A program made the position numbers and the translations under genes. A stretch of 64,000 nt of DNA. Origin: Promethearchaeota archaeon (GTDB lineage Archaea; Asgardarchaeota; Lokiarchaeia; Sigyniarchaeales; SOKP01). The notes beneath the pieces were generated by a model, which saw only the letters and a list, made by a program, of their open reading frames with translations, ran no database searches and was not told where the DNA came from. The stretch is taken from NCBI GenBank assembly GCA_019058445.1, contig JAHPZA010000006.1, positions 256,001 through 320,000 of the forward strand, in the 5' to 3' direction. Below are positions 1,964-9,739 of the stretch, one piece after another (within the stretch, counting starts at the first letter, position 1; each line of letters opens with the position of its first letter).

Positions 1964-3376
1964 TTAGAGGTTCATTTCAATAAGTTTTTTCTTTATTTCA
2001 ATCGCTCGTTCTTTAGATATATCATGAAATTTGATGAAGATAAGCGTACCAATTAACATAATTATTGCCGGGATTATTGAAATTTGAAGTAATAGACCAA
2101 ATTTAGCAAAATCGCTATTATCTGTACCTAATTGAGCATCATAACCTGTACTAGTAGCTATTATCGCAAAAACTAAGATTTGCCAAAAAATCGCTGTTGC
2201 AGAAAAAAATCGTAATATCCCTAGATAGGAACCTTCCTCACGAGTACCATGTTTTAAAGTTGCGTTATCAACACCTTCAGAAAAGATTGCATTAAGCAAA
2301 GCAGATGTACCAGAAACACCAATAGCCCAAAAGATATATACTAGGACTAATATGAAAAAATTGACAGCAAATATAAAACAAGCTGTACTTATCACAATTA
2401 AAATCAATGTATAATTGAAAGCTTTTCTCGATCCTATCTTTCTTGCTATTTTCATCCATATTGGTACTGACACAAAAGCCACTAAAAAGAATGTAAGGCC
2501 TGTAATAGCAGTCATTTGTATAGGTAGCCCTAAAGCATCTAATATATAGAAGGCAGTCCCAACAGTTACACAAGATACGGCTACTACATAGAGATCATAG
2601 GCTATAACTATTGCCATCCAATTTTTATCTGTTAAAGCTCTTTTTATAAGTACTTTTGGAGGTGAGGAACTTTTTCCTTCAGTATCTAAAGTGATTCGTA
2701 ACTCTTTCATTTCTTCAGGTTCACGAGCGCTTAAAAGATGCGGAATAGCAATGATTATCAGTATTATTATTGTAAATAAATTAGCATAGAAGAAAGCCAT
2801 TGGATTAGTGACTCCTCCAAACATTCCCAGTAAAACCGGACTAGTAATCGCAAACAATATCGCAACCATTCCATACAATATATAAGAATATGTGCCAAAT
2901 TTTACTCTTTGCTTTTGATCCCGTAATCTATCGACATTTAAGGCTGCAAAACTCAATTCATATAACGTTTGAAAGGCATCATAAATAATGATTATAATCA
3001 AAATCCATATTACAGCTAATAATGGATCTAATGTTACAGGAACATAGAGTAAAAGAAGACTTAATAAAGCTCCAAACAGTCCAATAACAATATAAGGAAA
3101 CCTTTTCCCATGCTTCGAGGTAAACTTAGAAGAACGATCCAGTAAATTACCAGTTAATGGATCATTTACTGCGTCCCAAATTACATATATTCCAAAAATA
3201 AGAAGAACATATAAAATTGGAATACCTATTGCTTTTAGAGCAAAAAGCTGTATATTATTTCTTATGCTCCAAAACGTATTTAAAATTGCAAGATTTAAAG
3301 CAAAAGCAATCATTTTTTTATTGCTAAAGGGTTCATATTTTGTTAACTCATCGTCTGATGACATAGTTTCCATCAC
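1964..3376 (-). CDS. MFS transporter, GPH/MelB-like sugar:cation symporter
   Basis: About 12 TM segments; WDAVNDP and HGTREEGSY motifs. Confidence 0.88.
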   Translation of the reverse strand: MMETMSSDDELTKYEPFSNKKMIAFALNLAILNTFWSIRNNIQLFALKAIGIPILYVLLIFGIYVIWDAVNDPLTGNLLDRSSKFTSKHGKRFPYIVIGLFGALLSLLLLYVPVTLDPLLAVIWILIIIIIYDAFQTLYELSFAALNVDRLRDQKQRVKFGTYSYILYGMVAILFAITSPVLLGMFGGVTNPMAFFYANLFTIIILIIIAIPHLLSAREPEEMKELRITLDTEGKSSSPPKVLIKRALTDKNWMAIVIAYDLYVVAVSCVTVGTAFYILDALGLPIQMTAITGLTFFLVAFVSVPIWMKIARKIGSRKAFNYTLILIVISTACFIFAVNFFILVLVYIFWAIGVSGTSALLNAIFSEGVDNATLKHGTREEGSYLGILRFFSATAIFWQILVFAIIATSTGYDAQLGTDNSDFAKFGLLLQISIIPAIIMLIGTLIFIKFHDISKERAIEIKKKLIEMNL

Positions 3377-3684
3377 TTTTTGACCTTTTTTAGTAAATTT
3401 ACTATTACATTAGATATCTTAAGTTACTCATGATAATTTATAAATACTTATTTTTTTCTGTTCATGTAATTGTTATTTACACAATTTCCAAAAAAAAATA
3501 ACTATGTTTATATATACAATCAAATAACAGATTGATTCTATAATAATCATGACGAATAAAAAAAAACCGTAATTAACGTTTCTTTAAACAATTTAGGTCT
3601 ATATTTAAAGGTTAATATCTGATTAGCTTTAAAAAATTTTATATATAGATTATTCGTGATTATTATGTCTTATAAAAATATATT

Positions 3685-3732
3685 TAAATAAACATCCATT
3701 TTTCTAATACCTTTAATTGCATCGAATTTAAT
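3685..3732 (-). repeat. Diverged copy of the polB1 3' end (encodes IKFDAIKGIRKMDVYL vs ISFDEIKGIKKMDAFF at 3823-3870)
   Basis: Manual alignment: 35/48 nt and 10/16 aa identical, four differences synonymous, same reading frame, 138 nt offset. Confidence 0.8.
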
Positions 3733-3819
3733 CCTTCTGATAACTGTTATCGAATAACTGAAACAAATGGTAAGCTTTATAGAAAAAAACTCATGGGATT
3801 TCTTAATTTTAATGGGGAC

Positions 3820-6747
3820 TTAGAAAAAAGCGTCCATTTTCTTAATCCCTTTTATTTCATCAAAAGAAATTCCGAGAGCATCAAGCACTTGCTCTAAGGC
3901 AGATTTAAGTAGTTCTTTATACTTCTTAGAATCAATATCTTGAAGTTTTGCGAGCTCGATTGCCTTTGCACCATTAGGACCTTTAGTCTTTACGAAACTA
4001 ATGGTTTCCCCTTTTTGATATTCTTTCCCTGTAGCGTTTTTTAATTCGATTGCCGCTCGGACATGTTGAGGAATGACTTTTGTATACCCCTTAAGATTCT
4101 TTTGCATAGCAATATTGATTGCATAATCTTCTAAACTAAATGCATCAGGTTTTCCTATCTTACTGAGATTTTCTTTTACAATTTCGATAATTTCACTCCG
4201 AGCTTTTGAAAATTCATTATCATTTGTTACATTTTTCAAGATCTCTAATAAACTGCCAAAGACTTTTTTAATGAACTCAGGTGTATTTTTCTTTTTTGCT
4301 ACTAAACCTTTTATATCAACATATTTAGTGTTCTTATAGATTCCTACATAGTTTTTCTTCCGTTCAGAAAGGGCTAAAAATTGGTAAGTTTTTTCTTCTT
4401 CTAAATCAAGATCAAGCTCCTCTTTACTCCATTTCGACAATTCATCCATTTGTTTATTTGTAGGGTTTAATAAAAAAACGCTGTCAGTATCGCCATAAAG
4501 AACTTGGACACCAATCTCTTCTGATTTTTTGATAGTTTGCTTGATTGAGTATTGACCTATTGAGGTTGTACTTTCAGCAACTGGTAAACAAAACAAGGGG
4601 AAATTCAAAGAACCGAAAACACCATATGAACCGTTAATAAACACTTTAAGAGCTTGCTGAATAGTATGATAGTAGCTTCGTTGTTTTTCAGTTAAATTCT
4701 TATCCCCTGATTTTGGCTTAAAATACTTTACTCTAATATCCCGGAAAAACCCAACTACATATGCAAAGATACCCATTTTATGGGTACAGGTATGGTATGG
4801 CGTTCCTTTTAGAAGGTTGTCTTCGCAATCAGTATGTGGACACAACACAGTTTCATAAGACAAGTTGTATTCCTTAATTATTGAGGGATACAAGCTTGCG
4901 AAATCCATCACGACTACATCATAATGAATCCCCGGAACAGGAGGAATAACATATGCTCCTTGAAAACCTTTTCCCTCTATTATTGACTTTTTATACCCTC
5001 CTTTTTTTACTTCAGAGATTTCTGATCGACGAGGAATAAGATTCCCTTTTCTGCGATGCTCAAAATAAAAGATATTTTGTATCCAGGTTGAAATTTGCCG
5101 ACGCACCATATCATGAATCGGCATTTTTGTAATCCTACATAATAAAATGATTAAATTCCAAACTAAGGAGTTATTGAACTTAGTTAATTCTAAAGTGAGT
5201 ATGGAATCCTTTAAATTGTACCAAGAAAGGATGTTATATTCCATATCATGGATTTCTTCTTCGTGCTGATACTTCTCTTTTCCTAATAATGCTGCGCTAA
5301 TGGCATTTAATGAACTGCTTTCATATGAACCACTAAAGGCATATCCGGAGATACTACGATTAAAGAAGAAATTAAATACATCAATATGAATCCCGTGTCT
5401 TAAATCACACTCAGCTTTAGACATAATTCCAAACCCTCGTTTTACATGAATGGGATTTAAATCTCGATCAATTTTTAGTTTTTCTGCCCTATGAAACATA
5501 TAGTTCAAATCAAAATTATCTCCATTAAAGGTAATAACTACAGGGTACTTCCACATCAACCGAAAGGTCTCAAGCAATAAGATTTTTTCAGATTTAAAGA
5601 ACAAAACCTGGGCATCTGAGGGAAAATTTTTATGAAGGTTTCCATATGAAAATCCTTCCCGTTCGAGCATATAGACTAATTTTAAACCGTCAGTGGCGAC
5701 AAAAGATATACTGATAATTTCTTGTTTCGCTTGACGTGGATCTGGGATTCTATAATCTTGGGCACCTAAATTAACTTCAATGTCCATAGCCATTCGTTTT
5801 ACATTTGGTATGGGGGTGAGAAATATATCTAAAAACTTTTCAGAAAACTCTTGAATCTCATTAGATTCCTCTTTAAATAAATCTCGTAGTTCTATGGCTA
5901 TTTTTTTAGATTCTTCATCTGTCTCTTCGAAATTTATTTGAGTAATACTACCATTTTTAATAGAATAGATTAATCCCGGTATTAATTGTCTATCAAATAT
6001 GTAATTTAAATGATATCTTATGTCTGCTTCCCATGCTTTAACATCATTTTCTCCTAAAATATTTCGAATATTTATGCCAGAACCTCCAATATTAGTAGGA
6101 GTTTTCCCATAAATTTTTGTCATGGGAATTTCTTTGTCACTTATAAGGTTAAAGCGTTTAATTTCCTCAAATCTAGTGAATCCATCATATTCGATTAATT
6201 TCAGGATTTTACTTAATTTATTATCATGATAAGTCATTTTTTTTAAATCAGTAATAGAATTCTTGCTTAAACAATAAGGTTCATGGTCAGTTGTATCGAT
6301 CCATATTTTTATTTCATCAGTATCCAAATCGTAAAACTTGCAAAAAGCTTTATTTTGTCCCCCATCATAATCCACGTCTAATAATAATCCCCTTTCTAAG
6401 TTTTCAATGATATTTCTCTTTTCAATTAAATATCTAATATATTTTGATGTGACTCCTTCTCTTTGTATTTTTTCTAGTTTAATATTACCTTGTTTTAAGC
6501 CAAATGGCTTGTCATTTCCTTCAAAGAATAGTTTTTGGGGTATTTTTGTGGTTTCCTTCAGTTTTTCCTTTTCGACTTTTTCTAGTGGTTTAGGTTTCGT
6601 TGGTTTAGTTGTTGCGGCTTTTTTTAATTTCGGTTTCTTCTCTGTTTTGGGTTTATCTTCTATTGGTTTCTCTTTTTTCGGTTTTGATTCATCAATATAT
6701 GAAAATAAAGATTTTTGCTTATCATCCACTTTTTTCTTCTTTGCCAT
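3820..6747 (-). CDS. polB1: Family B DNA polymerase, PolB1-type
   Basis: Exo I DIEV, Exo II FNGDNFD, polymerase motifs DFASLYPSII, QQALKVFINGSYG and YGDTDS. PolB1-like N-terminal domain. PIP-like QKSLFSY at the N-terminus and KKMDAFF at the C-terminus. Start placed at ATG 6747. Confidence 0.95.
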   Translation of the reverse strand: MAKKKKVDDKQKSLFSYIDESKPKKEKPIEDKPKTEKKPKLKKAATTKPTKPKPLEKVEKEKLKETTKIPQKLFFEGNDKPFGLKQGNIKLEKIQREGVTSKYIRYLIEKRNIIENLERGLLLDVDYDGGQNKAFCKFYDLDTDEIKIWIDTTDHEPYCLSKNSITDLKKMTYHDNKLSKILKLIEYDGFTRFEEIKRFNLISDKEIPMTKIYGKTPTNIGGSGINIRNILGENDVKAWEADIRYHLNYIFDRQLIPGLIYSIKNGSITQINFEETDEESKKIAIELRDLFKEESNEIQEFSEKFLDIFLTPIPNVKRMAMDIEVNLGAQDYRIPDPRQAKQEIISISFVATDGLKLVYMLEREGFSYGNLHKNFPSDAQVLFFKSEKILLLETFRLMWKYPVVITFNGDNFDLNYMFHRAEKLKIDRDLNPIHVKRGFGIMSKAECDLRHGIHIDVFNFFFNRSISGYAFSGSYESSSLNAISAALLGKEKYQHEEEIHDMEYNILSWYNLKDSILTLELTKFNNSLVWNLIILLCRITKMPIHDMVRRQISTWIQNIFYFEHRRKGNLIPRRSEISEVKKGGYKKSIIEGKGFQGAYVIPPVPGIHYDVVVMDFASLYPSIIKEYNLSYETVLCPHTDCEDNLLKGTPYHTCTHKMGIFAYVVGFFRDIRVKYFKPKSGDKNLTEKQRSYYHTIQQALKVFINGSYGVFGSLNFPLFCLPVAESTTSIGQYSIKQTIKKSEEIGVQVLYGDTDSVFLLNPTNKQMDELSKWSKEELDLDLEEEKTYQFLALSERKKNYVGIYKNTKYVDIKGLVAKKKNTPEFIKKVFGSLLEILKNVTNDNEFSKARSEIIEIVKENLSKIGKPDAFSLEDYAINIAMQKNLKGYTKVIPQHVRAAIELKNATGKEYQKGETISFVKTKGPNGAKAIELAKLQDIDSKKYKELLKSALEQVLDALGISFDEIKGIKKMDAFF

Positions 6748-6889
6748 TTTCACGACCAATAGGAAAATTTGAATTAACTTTATATATGTATAAATATTAT
6801 CAGATTGATTATAATAACATCTATTCAGAGTTTAATATTTTAAAATCTAAAAAAAGATAAAAAAAAATAGACTATTGTAAATTTGTTAT

Positions 6890-8263
6890 TTATTTTGTCC
6901 CCGTGGTCATTCTGATATCTCCTAAGAGCATATAAGGAGCGAAAATAGTATTACCACTAGTACTTAACCAGGTGTTAACTTGCTTTAAATTTTTTCCCAA
7001 TGCAAGTGTATTCTCAAGCATATGGAAATGATCAGAATTTATACGGAGTTCTCGAACAGGTTCCAAGATTTTTCCCTTGTCTTTTACCAAAAACATTCCA
7101 TCTTTAGGAAGAGATGACAATGCCCCTGGAGGAGCATAACTTTGATACCGAGTATACCACGTAGATGTTACCAATAATGTAGGTTTTTCGGAAATTTCCA
7201 TTAGTTCCTCTAAATTATAATCTCCCGTGGAAAACACGGTATTTGATGGTTTAGGCATGGTAATTCCAGCGTTTGCAGTAGAAGTTTCATCTTTTCGAGC
7301 AAGAGATGTATTAGTAAAATATTGTTTTATTACACCCTTATCAATTAATACCGTTTTTTGAGTAGGAACAAGCTCATCATCAAAAGGTGAAGTATCTAAA
7401 CCATATTCTACAGTCCCATCGTCCCAAGCAGAAATTTTCTCATCAGCAATCTTATCTCCCTCTTTCTTACCAACTAACCACGAAAGACCCATTTTTTTCA
7501 CATAAGCGTTTAGTCCAATTGCAGGTGTGGGTGCTTGTAACTCCGTAGATACTTTAGGATATATGATTAGATTATAAACGCCTGGCTTCCCTTTTTTTCC
7601 ACCGATTGCTTGTTTACATATTATTCCCGCTTCTTTTCCTGCTCCTACAGGGTCGAATTTTTTATCAATATGTGTAGAACATGATAATGCTTCTCCCGTT
7701 GCATACATATCCTTTGCAAATGCGCGTATTCTAAAATTTAAGTTAGTTCTTTTATAATTCCCTTCTAATCCTTTACTATTGAATAAATAAAATTGAGCAT
7801 CTCCAAAGAAGAAAGATCCTGCAACCCTATTAGCTCCTTGAGATATACAAGCATCTGTTGCTTCTTCTACCATATCAACTGCTTTCTCTCCTAAACCAAC
7901 AACTTTAGTATCAAAAATCTTATTTTGAATCTCATTATCATACTTAAATGGACCTTCTGGTAAACGTTTATAATTAGAATTTCTTTGAGCGACATCTAAT
8001 AGTTTTTCACTATCATTTAACGTCTTTTCAATAGCTCCGGGTCGTAAATCGCTAATCATCATCTCTATTGTTCTTCTTTTTTTAGATAAAAATAAATTTA
8101 ACCTAACATCATCCCAGTTTTTATTAATGTCTATTTTATTTTCAGAAAATCTAATTTGGCTTTCGTTCCTTATTATGCCTTTTATTGCCCAATCTGTACA
8201 AAACCGTTCTAAAGTCTTTTTTGCCCGTTCCATTACTTCATTTAACTTTTCTGCCTTATCCAT
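6890..8263 (-). CDS. tldE: TldE/PmbA family protein
   Basis: TldD/PmbA features (PFDDE, LIDKGV, STANAG), no HExxxH motif, directly downstream of tldD. Confidence 0.85.
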   Translation of the reverse strand: MDKAEKLNEVMERAKKTLERFCTDWAIKGIIRNESQIRFSENKIDINKNWDDVRLNLFLSKKRRTIEMMISDLRPGAIEKTLNDSEKLLDVAQRNSNYKRLPEGPFKYDNEIQNKIFDTKVVGLGEKAVDMVEEATDACISQGANRVAGSFFFGDAQFYLFNSKGLEGNYKRTNLNFRIRAFAKDMYATGEALSCSTHIDKKFDPVGAGKEAGIICKQAIGGKKGKPGVYNLIIYPKVSTELQAPTPAIGLNAYVKKMGLSWLVGKKEGDKIADEKISAWDDGTVEYGLDTSPFDDELVPTQKTVLIDKGVIKQYFTNTSLARKDETSTANAGITMPKPSNTVFSTGDYNLEELMEISEKPTLLVTSTWYTRYQSYAPPGALSSLPKDGMFLVKDKGKILEPVRELRINSDHFHMLENTLALGKNLKQVNTWLSTSGNTIFAPYMLLGDIRMTTGTK

Positions 8264-8272
8264 AGGATCACC

Positions 8273-9739
8273 TTACGCTAACCTCACATTTCTTAATCTT
8301 ACTGCGGGACCGCCAGTCCATACAGGACATCCTTGCCCAGGTTCAGACTTGCCGCAGAAAGCACCCTGCCATTCCATAGTTTCTTCCTTTCCTTGAGCAT
8401 CAATTGAACCGAACAAACCGGGAGTGGATATTTCGAGACCTGGTTTTAGAACGAAAATATTACTAATTTCCCCATTTTCAATCAGATAAGCTTCTTGACC
8501 GACATATTTTGACTGTAATCTTTTATCATCAATATTCCATTCCGTAAAAGACTTCATAAAAATCCCCAATTTAACATCTTCCACCATTTCTTCAAAAGAA
8601 AGATCACCAGGAGCAAAATAAGTATTGGCCATTCGAACTAATGGTTCTCGATCGTAGGCAACTGCTCTTGCCGCTGCGTTACTTTGAATATTAAACATTG
8701 CCGCAGTTTCTCTATTGTGTAGCATCTCATTAAAAATACCATCCTTTATTAATTCCCTTCTCCTTGCTTTCACACCCTCATCATCATACAAATAAAAGCC
8801 ATATGAACCCAGGATCGTAGGATCTTCAAATACATTTACACATTCATTTCCAATTTTATAACCAAGTTCATGTTCTTTTAAATAAGATTCACCTGCTTGG
8901 GCACCCTCTCTCCCTAAAATACGATCGGCTTCGTGTGGATGGCCACAATTTTCATGAGAAATAATTCCTGCTACGTCTGGTCCAAGAATAATGTCTATTT
9001 CACCTTCAGGAGATTTTTTAGACTTTAAGATAATATCTCCAAGCACCTTTACTTTATCTTCAACTTTTTGTTTGATATTCCAAGATGTAAATTCATCCCA
9101 TCCACCAGTCGTGCCATAGGTAGTGTATGATTGCTCATTCTTTCCTCCGGGCTGCACTCCAATTATCACTGGAATAAGGGCTATTCGGGGTACATGGCTG
9201 GAAATCTTTGAACCTTCACTCGTTATAAAATAAGTATCCCGTTGTTCTGTGATTAACACAAAAATATGAATAAAATTAACAGGATGCTTTTCAGAAAAGA
9301 TGCTTATTAAATCTTGTAAATATGTGATCTTCTCTTCTAAGGGCACCGCCATTGGATTTATCTTATATTTACTCTGCCATTTAACTTCATATGCTTTTTC
9401 TTCACTCATTTTAAGCGGGCTTTTTCTTTGAGCACCACTTCTTTTAGCAGTTTTATATGCATGATCTACACAATCACAAATAGTCTCTTTATTAAGAATG
9501 TTTGTGGCAACCATTCCCATTCCCCCATTTACTAAAAGACGAATATTTATTCCTGATTTTCTACTAAAAGCATCGGTAGTAAGTTCAATGGGTAAATTTC
9601 CCATATGCATTTTTCCATTAATAAAGATTAATATATCACTATTATTGTTTTCAAGCCTCACTTCTGCATAATCACATGTTCTTCCATTTTCTCTAGCATA
9701 TTCAAGGGCAAATTCAGCTAAATCTTTAAATTCTTCCAT
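8273..9739 (-). CDS. tldD: TldD family metalloprotease
   Basis: HENCGHPHEADR zinc motif, YDDEGV, RMANTY and C-terminal FCGK. Confidence 0.92.
   Translation of the reverse strand: MEEFKDLAEFALEYARENGRTCDYAEVRLENNNSDILIFINGKMHMGNLPIELTTDAFSRKSGINIRLLVNGGMGMVATNILNKETICDCVDHAYKTAKRSGAQRKSPLKMSEEKAYEVKWQSKYKINPMAVPLEEKITYLQDLISIFSEKHPVNFIHIFVLITEQRDTYFITSEGSKISSHVPRIALIPVIIGVQPGGKNEQSYTTYGTTGGWDEFTSWNIKQKVEDKVKVLGDIILKSKKSPEGEIDIILGPDVAGIISHENCGHPHEADRILGREGAQAGESYLKEHELGYKIGNECVNVFEDPTILGSYGFYLYDDEGVKARRRELIKDGIFNEMLHNRETAAMFNIQSNAAARAVAYDREPLVRMANTYFAPGDLSFEEMVEDVKLGIFMKSFTEWNIDDKRLQSKYVGQEAYLIENGEISNIFVLKPGLEISTPGLFGSIDAQGKEETMEWQGAFCGKSEPGQGCPVWTGGPAVRLRNVRLA

Follow-up and report, generated by a model that had tools for sequence, protein, structure and literature searches.

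Integrase-driven elements such as phage 21 and e14 at icd restore the 3′ end of the gene that they target, and a C-terminal duplication of atp6 in Allomyces is said to have been reported by Paquin and colleagues in 1994. In the mitochondrial cob and atp6 genes of Endoconidiophora resinifera, C-terminal duplications have degenerate LAGLIDADG or GIY-YIG open reading frames (ORFs) lying between the copies (PMC6279837). Closest in layout to the locus reported here are the WHO elements of the yeasts Torulaspora and Lachancea, relatives and proposed ancestors of the HO endonuclease, which are endonucleases of intein-like type that lack both exteins and motif G and reside downstream of FBA1 (Coughlan et al. 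2020, PMC7282813). Homing of WHO replaces the 3′ end of FBA1 and pushes the old 3′ fragments and WHO pseudogenes downstream, where they decay; the 5′ and 3′ trees of FBA1 disagree, and WHO elements are sporadically distributed (PMC7282813). Here, we analyzed a 64,000-nucleotide (nt) stretch of a Promethearchaeota archaeon genome (Lokiarchaeia; assembly GCA_019058445.1, contig JAHPZA010000006.1, positions 256,001 to 320,000; hereafter, the window) in which polB, the gene for a family B DNA polymerase, is followed in frame by a second copy of its own C-terminal tail. This second tail (copy 2, with copy 1 being the tail of polB itself) is very probably a non-functional remnant of an older polB 3′ end, displaced by a homing element that settled behind polB and later decayed. 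A homing endonuclease gene (HEG) relic separates the two copies, and intact elements occupy the same site in sister genomes.

Like WHO, the archaeal HEG is intein-like, has neither exteins nor a C-terminal splicing motif, and lies directly downstream of one conserved housekeeping gene, with displaced 3′ fragments of that host gene found downstream of the HEG. The two systems also share a discordant 5′/3′ phylogeny of the host gene, an elevated divergence in its 3′ part (identity falls from 96% to 71% between loci L073 and L045) and a sporadic distribution. Unlike WHO, the element has an archaeal host, targets polB instead of FBA1, is convergent with its target, and occurs as one element per locus with no cluster and no convincing zinc-finger fusion; its origin from an intein at polB motif B is apparently independent, the nearest relatives being polB inteins and the nearest solved structure PI-PkoII. 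Judged by layout and evolutionary signatures, the archaeal element apparently works like WHO, and we do not file it as a member of the WHO/HO family. It shares Hint and LAGLIDADG homology and the host gene family with the polB-b inteins, exemplified by PI-PkoII of Thermococcus kodakarensis polB, but it lies neither in frame with polB nor inside it, being a gene of its own on the opposite strand; with Cys1, the terminal Asn and the +1 nucleophile all missing, it is not removable by protein splicing, and it may instead persist by supplying a replacement gene end. As in the fungal mitochondrial genes, a partial C-terminal copy stands downstream of an intact gene in the window with a degenerate HEG between them, whereas the fungal cases reside in organelle genomes and involve HEGs that are not intein-derived and that in many cases form an in-frame fusion with the host gene. 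The arrangement also resembles that of e14 and phage 21 at icd, where the incoming element brings a synonymously diverged gene end with it and leaves the native one behind as a pseudogene, but the archaeal locus has no integrase and shows variable conversion tracts in place of a fixed att core.

Two polB tails and an endonuclease relic

The polB ORF opens with TTG at 6759 and closes with TAA at 3822-3820, and the real start is probably an ATG a few codons inside the ORF. Its protein ends in ...GISFDEIKGIKKMDAFF immediately before the TAA, and copy 1 is a tail of the ancestral “N-type”, in which the final ...MDAFF is PIP-like. A first-pass annotation of the window, made from the letters alone, had reported that the frame stays open for 49 codons past this TAA and contains a second tail, and both the frame and its coordinates proved to be as described. 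Copy 2 begins 138 nt beyond copy 1 and in frame with it, and the two agree at 35 of 48 nt and at 10 of 16 amino acids (aa), with the likeness confined to those 48 nt. Of 20,000 48-mers drawn at random from the window, not one scored 35/48 against the 423 nt that follow it (the top score, 34/48, was found twice), and the runner-up match to copy 1 within its 423 nt downstream was 23/48. A six-frame scan of all 64 kb with the tail consensus gave scores of at least 9/16 only for copy 1 (16/16), copy 2 (11/16) and one further site (9/16). As nothing comparable emerged from these matched nulls and the six-frame scan, chance similarity, which the annotation had named as a way in which its observation might fail, is excluded.

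The sequence between the copies is not derived from polB. HEG residues 409-438 matched it with an E-value of 8.3e-6 in a protein search of the window's own genome, and the resulting 30-codon relic, NPSDNCYRITETNGKLYRKKLMGFLNFNGD, begins 2 nt past the polB stop, runs antisense to polB and abuts copy 2. Read in order, the window has polB complete with tail and stop, a gap of 2 nt, 30 HEG codons, and the last 16 codons of a second polB tail. At the nucleotide level, blastn aligned the spacer (3816-3729) antisense to the HEGs of G002 and G003, two genomes of the same genus, at 76-79% identity (L013 7698..7624 and L014 6555..6468). At the protein level, identity between the relic and eight intact free-standing HEGs is 61-77%, compared to 39-56% for true inteins. 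No relics of other cargo (the CxxCxxCC-domain gene, the 347-aa ORF, the PIN toxin or the antitoxin described below) were found in window positions 3300-3900. In addition, the first part of the post-stop polB frame is the exact codon-aligned antisense of the relic frame, the low coordinate of the codons being 1 mod 3 in both. A stop in the polB frame would need a TTA, CTA or TCA codon in the relic, which has none, its three Leu codons and one Ser codon being CTT, CTC, CTT and TCT. Because of this alignment, the open post-stop frame is largely explained, and its 49 codons appear to be incidental.

Copy 2 was compared with relatives, as the annotation had suggested, using a set of 53 other tails from genomes and metagenomes, which it matched at a mean of 34.6 of 48 nt and a maximum of 40/48, a value attained both with G003's displaced fragment and with the consensus of the family. 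Since it is no closer to copy 1 than to the average tail of another species, copy 2 is an independent allele and no recent duplicate of copy 1. Its score against the tail consensus is 11/16, compared to 13-16 for functional tails, and its own replacements are S/T to K, E to A, K to R, A to V, F to Y and F to L. Three of its nucleotide states are absent from all other tails, two at second positions (S/T to K and E to A) and one at a third position (F to L). The stop has been lost (TAA to AAT), with four more codons following, and neither the conserved ..EIKGIKKMDAFF at the very C-terminus nor the purifying selection that marks a functional tail is seen in copy 2. The annotation had described the differences between the copies as mostly synonymous or conservative and had concluded that copy 2 diverged as coding sequence. 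Synonymous differences do exist (ATA/ATT, GGG/GGT, GAC/GAT and AAG/AAA), but polarization against the 53 tails assigned them to the copy 1 side or to allelic variation, whereas the changes that are copy 2's own are mostly non-synonymous, fall on near-invariant residues and include loss of the stop; the statement holds in part. Judging from its sequence, copy 2 appears to be a dead pseudogene scar and no hidden coding feature.

Intact elements in sister genomes

The stranded 3′ end of a displaced polB allele had been one of two explanations offered in the first-pass annotation, and it is this one that relatives support, with a homing-endonuclease element as the cause; the relic between the copies in the window spans 88-90 nt, and the element is intact in sister genomes. 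In a DNA search of relatives, G002 and G003 each proved to have a pair of polB 3′ ends on a single contig. Reading along the polB strand in G002, polB is followed by an opposite-strand gene of 477 aa, a gene with a CxxCxxCC domain, a polB fragment of 182 nt, and then MFS, creatininase and GTP cyclohydrolase III (GCH_III). The 477-aa gene matches Pfam LAGLIDADG_3, with a weak match to Intein_splicing, and the HEGs of the two genomes encode 477-479 aa. The G002 gene occupies L013 6392-7825, and its counterpart in Lokiarchaeum GC14_75 occupies L073 2059-3525. The cassette and right-hand junction in G003 are as in G002, except for a 39-nt deletion. Separately, G003 (L014 3383-4240) is without the MFS gene between creatininase and the polB region, and its displaced fragment stands directly after creatininase. 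The displaced fragments encode ...GISFDEIKGIKKMDAFF in G002 and ...GILFDEIKGIKKMDAFF in G003 and have 88% nt identity to the functional polB end of the window, while the functional polB tails of these two genomes are quite different from that of the window. The same layout was found in L037, in L073 (Lokiarchaeum GC14_75) and in L077/L078. Beyond the HEG, the displaced polB 3′ fragments measure 182 nt in G002, 144 nt in G003, 282 nt in L037, ~141 nt in L073, ~297 nt in L077/L078 and 48 nt in the window. Based on these sequences, the displaced fragments in sister Promethearchaeia appear to encode the ancestral tail.

A comparison of synteny downstream of polB, also proposed in the annotation, showed the polB cassette of G002 to be followed by the same MFS, creatininase and GCH_III genes as in the window, the order GCH_III, creatininase, MFS, polB being identical in the two. 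Window positions 3451..3300, comprising 76 nt of the MFS ORF start and 75 nt upstream of it, match G002 at 70%. Because this MFS_2 neighbor is conserved, the chromosomal context of the scar is fixed. The placement of the locus at an island edge was not borne out, the gene order on both flanks matching that of relatives.

At every readable locus, the free-standing HEG is convergent with polB and lies 2-114 nt past the polB stop. Of 5.8 billion proteins, 11 belong to the family, and ten of the 11 are free-standing; the sole name given to them in their sources is “hypothetical protein”, and this family of polB-linked elements in archaea appears to be undescribed. Across 154 species genomes from the order, the free-standing form is present in five and the in-frame intein form likewise in five. 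The five free-standing HEGs compared have their own ATG start, a Gly replacing Cys1 and a mostly lost block-B His, and the ends recorded for free-standing HEGs (..VHDSI, ..SEISNC, ..YNNLP, ..VHDIES and ..VQDS) have no HN followed by Cys or Ser. Both LAGLIDADG acidic residues are kept, ..YLGWYxAEGS.. and ..YxKGDG.. are invariant in the 5 sequences, and the Pfam LAGLIDADG_3 match scores 28.7 bits against a cutoff of 22.5. The sole match in the PDB by sequence is PI-PkoII (2cw7, E 4e-9). With pairwise dN/dS values of 0.24-0.32 among the five genes, these HEGs are maintained proteins under purifying selection.

The nearest relatives of the HEG sit within very long open frames. The homologue in L053 is a true in-frame intein in polB motif B, with junctions NA/C...HN/C at the point where the window reads KVFING/SYG, which is the classical polB-b site. 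HEGs and the in-frame inteins of relatives have 42-47% aa identity, their homology extending over the Hint and LAGLIDADG domains. An intein would be expected in frame with Cys/Ser1, a block-B His, a terminal Asn and a +1 nucleophile, and the HEG instead has the opposite strand and a gene to itself. By sequence comparison, the free-standing HEG thus appears to be homologous to inteins without being one, splicing-dead, and derived from the polB motif-B intein. True in-frame inteins, homologues of the HEG that sit in polB motif B (NA/C...HN/C), were located at L053 3060-4322 and at L032 (G011:C11) 6543-8931, and the polB of G011 appears to hold another intein besides that at motif B, ~387 aa long and placed at the DTD motif (window aa 757). 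HEGs with a ~240-aa N-terminal extension bearing CxxC...CxxC motifs were observed at L037 5281-6000 and in protein P0009. This Cys-rich extension, present in the long forms only, matches Zn_ribbon_9 below threshold (E 0.008) and recalls the zinc finger of WHO/HO, but at the opposite end of the protein. Two peptide patterns searched against viral_contigs revealed no virus carrying the HEG.

The cargo beside the HEG varies by locus and includes a 347-aa ORF with no Pfam match (L073 3778-4821), a 359-aa ORF, likewise with no Pfam match and hydrophobic-looking by eye (L036 4669-5748), and the CxxCxxCC-domain protein of G002/G003 (L013 5261-6067). A metagenome contig (Ga0180433_10047665; L067 1-1300) holds two N-type polB tails at 135-182 and 1175-1222. 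These tails flank a PIN_2 (VapC-like) gene and a small ORF upstream of it on the opposite strand, a toxin-antitoxin pair, with no HEG. They differ by 1 aa in 38, yet by 24 of 115 nt, and because of this imbalance they are read as alleles from different lineages; by sequence, L067 appears to be a fresh 3′-end replacement event of the same kind. G018 has two distinct polB 3′ ends, both at contig ends (L031, G018:C84, 6551-6808; L005, G018:C161, 1-480), one of which bears a slightly decayed tail (GITFDEIGGIRKMDSFF); this could be a further displaced fragment or the result of strain mixing. Short metagenome contigs also carry N-type tail fragments with no polB before them, at L075 841-1020, where the fragment is decayed (63% aa, GITFDKIRGIRKMNVFF), and at L074 110-256, where a DUF2804 gene follows as at the HEG locus L079. 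These two are probably further displaced fragments.

A mosaic polB and a candidate target of the HEG

The N-type tail, GI[ST][FY][DE]EI[KR]GIKKMDAFF, is near-invariant as protein in more than 45 HEG-free polB genes, in which synonymous sites vary freely. Every HEG-linked polB has a tail other than N-type, belonging to one of two classes, F1 (G003, L036, L037, L077, L079 and L080) or F2 (G002 and L073), in a comparison where the metagenome scan was queried with N-type tails. Maximum-likelihood trees were built for the polB body (codons 450-800) and for its 3′ end (codons 830-960). In the body tree, G002 pairs with the window, which has the relic only (support 100/98), L037 with L042 (100/97) and L073 with L045 (100/100), L042 and L045 being HEG-free; on this tree, the HEG label needs 5 changes. 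In the 3′-end tree, HEG-bearing polB genes form two clades of their own, with G002 joined to L073 (100/99) and L036 to L037 (100/100), the latter pair being joined by G003 (84/89). In approximately unbiased (AU) tests, the HEG-bearing 3′-end clades were rejected in the body (p 1e-4 and 2e-38), and the pairing of G002 with the window was rejected in the 3′ end (p 0.003). Because the body and 3′-end trees disagree so strongly, the polB 3′ end appears to travel with the HEG.

In the cleanest pair, L073 and L045, the drop in identity occurs at codon ~685-690, which is 20-25 codons upstream of codons 710 and 711 in motif B. Comparing 31 polB alleles, codon 710 encodes Ser or Ala in all five HEG-bearing alleles and Gly in the window (relic only), G008, L038, L042, L045 and L061, which are the HEG-free alleles nearest to HEG-bearing ones in the body tree. 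Ala or Ser at this codon is also seen in L065 and throughout one clade without the HEG; these may represent resistant alleles or former hosts. No clean HEG-specific nucleotide signature was found at motif B, the sole pattern being Gly versus non-Gly at codon 710. The codon pattern and the place of the identity drop in L073 and L045 hint, short of proof, that the HEG kept the target of the intein at motif B. A further observation concerns two HEG-free species of the genus, G006 (L016) and G009 (L017), between which polB is mosaic, with identity of ~93-98% over the first third, ~80-91% over the middle part and ~95% over the final 450 nt; in this group, polB seems to recombine commonly even where no HEG is present. 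Table 1 collects the features of the window.

Table 1 Positions of polB, its two tails and associated features in the window
Feature	Position	Strand	Evidence
polB, family B DNA polymerase gene	3820..6759	-	Pfam DNA_pol_B 2.5e-45, DNA_pol_B_exo1 7e-24; ORF list
Copy 1, functional C-terminal tail ISFDEIKGIKKMDAFF	3823..3870	-	16/16 against degenerate consensus, 53 tails
Copy 2, IKFDAIKGIRKMDVYL, apparently a decayed, displaced N-type polB tail	3685..3732	-	Similarity to copy 1 and to other tails
HEG relic, 30 codons, HEG residues ~409-438	3730..3819	+	Protein search and blastn
Open frame after the polB stop, 49 codons	3673..3819	-	Translation; closing TAA 3672-3670
T7 tract in the spacer, between copy 1 and copy 2	3783..3789	-	Sequence read
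Codons G710 and S711, motif B KVFINGSYG, true-intein insertion site (polB-b), candidate HEG target	4627..4632	-	L053 junctions, 31-allele codon table
MFS_2 transporter gene, conserved downstream neighbor of polB	1964..3376	-	Pfam

Alternative explanations and proposed history

The other explanation put forward in the first-pass annotation was functional, namely that copy 2 is an alternative PCNA-binding tail, added when the TAA is read through or when the two copies are joined in a deletion or recombination variant. Its in-frame offset, the 49 stop-free codons, which are the longest post-stop opening among 54 tails (the next being 40, 36 and 31 codons), and a retained PIP-like core, KMDxYL, are what such a tail would be expected to have. 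This explanation is nevertheless highly unlikely, as near-invariant residues have been replaced to a degree not seen in functional tails, copy 2 is no longer C-terminal, and the linker that would be translated is antisense HEG debris whose openness follows from its codon alignment. The annotation had looked to close relatives for the open frame, and none of them has an in-frame extension or an in-frame second tail; in L038, the closest 3′-end relative, the frame stops after 2 codons and there is no relic. The T7 tract ahead of copy 2 is likely an archaeal transcription stop signal. Oligo-T runs serve as terminators in archaea. No hairpin-type terminator was found, the RNA near the site has no significant fold (z = -0.77), and no Rfam family matched at E up to 1. 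An independent small ORF over copy 2 was also considered and rejected, there being no in-frame ATG, GTG or TTG before the Met within copy 2. The second tail gives no basis for annotating a readthrough extension in the window. A local tandem duplication of the polB end, through slippage or unequal recombination followed by drift, would leave two direct copies on the same strand 138 nt apart, as are found here, but it would not place foreign sequence between them. It is scarcely credible in view of the HEG relic, of a copy 2 that matches copy 1 at 35/48 when tails of other species average 34.6 and reach 40, and of synonymous states that copy 2 shares with those tails and not with copy 1. A chance match in AT-rich DNA or an assembly artifact might be suspected in a window of 32% G+C from a metagenome-assembled genome of 10 contigs; with the matched nulls and the 64-kb scan yielding nothing comparable, and with the same architecture recurring in independent assemblies, this suspicion deserves as little credence as tandem duplication.

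An att-site footprint of an integrase-driven integrative element, with the HEG as mere cargo, is a somewhat stronger competitor, though still an improbable one. Integrases that target gene ends also replace the 3′ end and displace the native one, and the tail duplication in L067 surrounds a PIN_2 toxin-antitoxin pair with no HEG. However, no integrase or recombinase was found in any cassette read, and the HEG is the sole constant component, always adjoining polB. The replaced tract, moreover, reaches from hundreds of nt to more than 1 kb upstream, and its variable breakpoints are typical of gene conversion, with no fixed att core.

Displacement by a homing element, the explanation that we prefer, starts from the homology of the parts, the intact elements at the same site, the mosaic polB, the purifying selection on the HEG and the decay of copy 2, and from there we infer homing by cleavage as the mechanism, the target site and the order of the deletions. 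Under this proposal, a free-standing, splicing-dead LAGLIDADG HEG originating from a motif-B intein would have inserted directly behind the polB stop in convergent orientation. By analogy with the yeast WHO elements, its endonuclease probably cuts HEG-free polB alleles, and the best candidate for where it cuts lies in motif B, at the old intein site or close to it. The break would then be repaired from an HEG-bearing allele, such that the donor polB 3′ end and the HEG are copied in and the previous polB 3′ end is left as a fragment farther downstream. In the window, the element would have decayed through two deletions, or through one deletion and an illegitimate recombination that restored a tail of the ancestral type, leaving 30 codons of the HEG (3730-3819) and, of the displaced tail, its final 16 codons (3732-3685). 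In the former case, the lineage of the element would have been linked to an N-type end, and the two deletions would have removed the 3′ end of the HEG and most of the remainder. In the latter case, an HEG-free allele would have replaced the polB end, joining illegitimately to an internal point of the HEG where there may be a TC(A)CCC microhomology, and one deletion would have come afterwards.

Several points weigh against this proposal. The window combines an N-type tail with Gly710, whereas every intact HEG examined is accompanied by an F-type tail and a non-Gly codon 710, so that either an extra step restoring the N-type 3′ end or an N-type-linked HEG lineage is needed. The displaced fragments, at ~115-300 nt, are far shorter than the ~0.8 kb from motif B to the stop. 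Breakpoints differ by pair (aa ~685, ~519 and ~854), and no single polB breakpoint shared across pairs with and without the HEG was found. The clades submitted to the AU tests were named after a first FastTree run had been seen, and both cleavage and its target site are putative. In addition, a rough estimate places the chance of a copy that is both in frame and stop-free at a few percent, which formally leaves function some slight room, and the window, as part of a metagenome-assembled genome, was judged from its assembly.

On balance, we favor the broader view that Promethearchaeia harbor an active homing element of the WHO type, an escaped, non-splicing motif-B intein that spreads by replacing several hundred bases at the polB 3′ end including the PCNA-binding tail. 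If so, elements of this type, so far described in only a few yeast genera, would also exist in Lokiarchaeia-type Asgard archaea, polB would be a mosaic across species, and the window would be a burnt-out copy documenting the cycle of invasion and decay. Should homing be confirmed, the route from intein to free-standing homing element would have arisen independently in archaea, and these HEGs would be candidate long-target LAGLIDADG enzymes with a defined natural target. It would also explain the mosaic polB 3′ end and the classes of PCNA-binding tail, which would matter for polB-based phylogenies.

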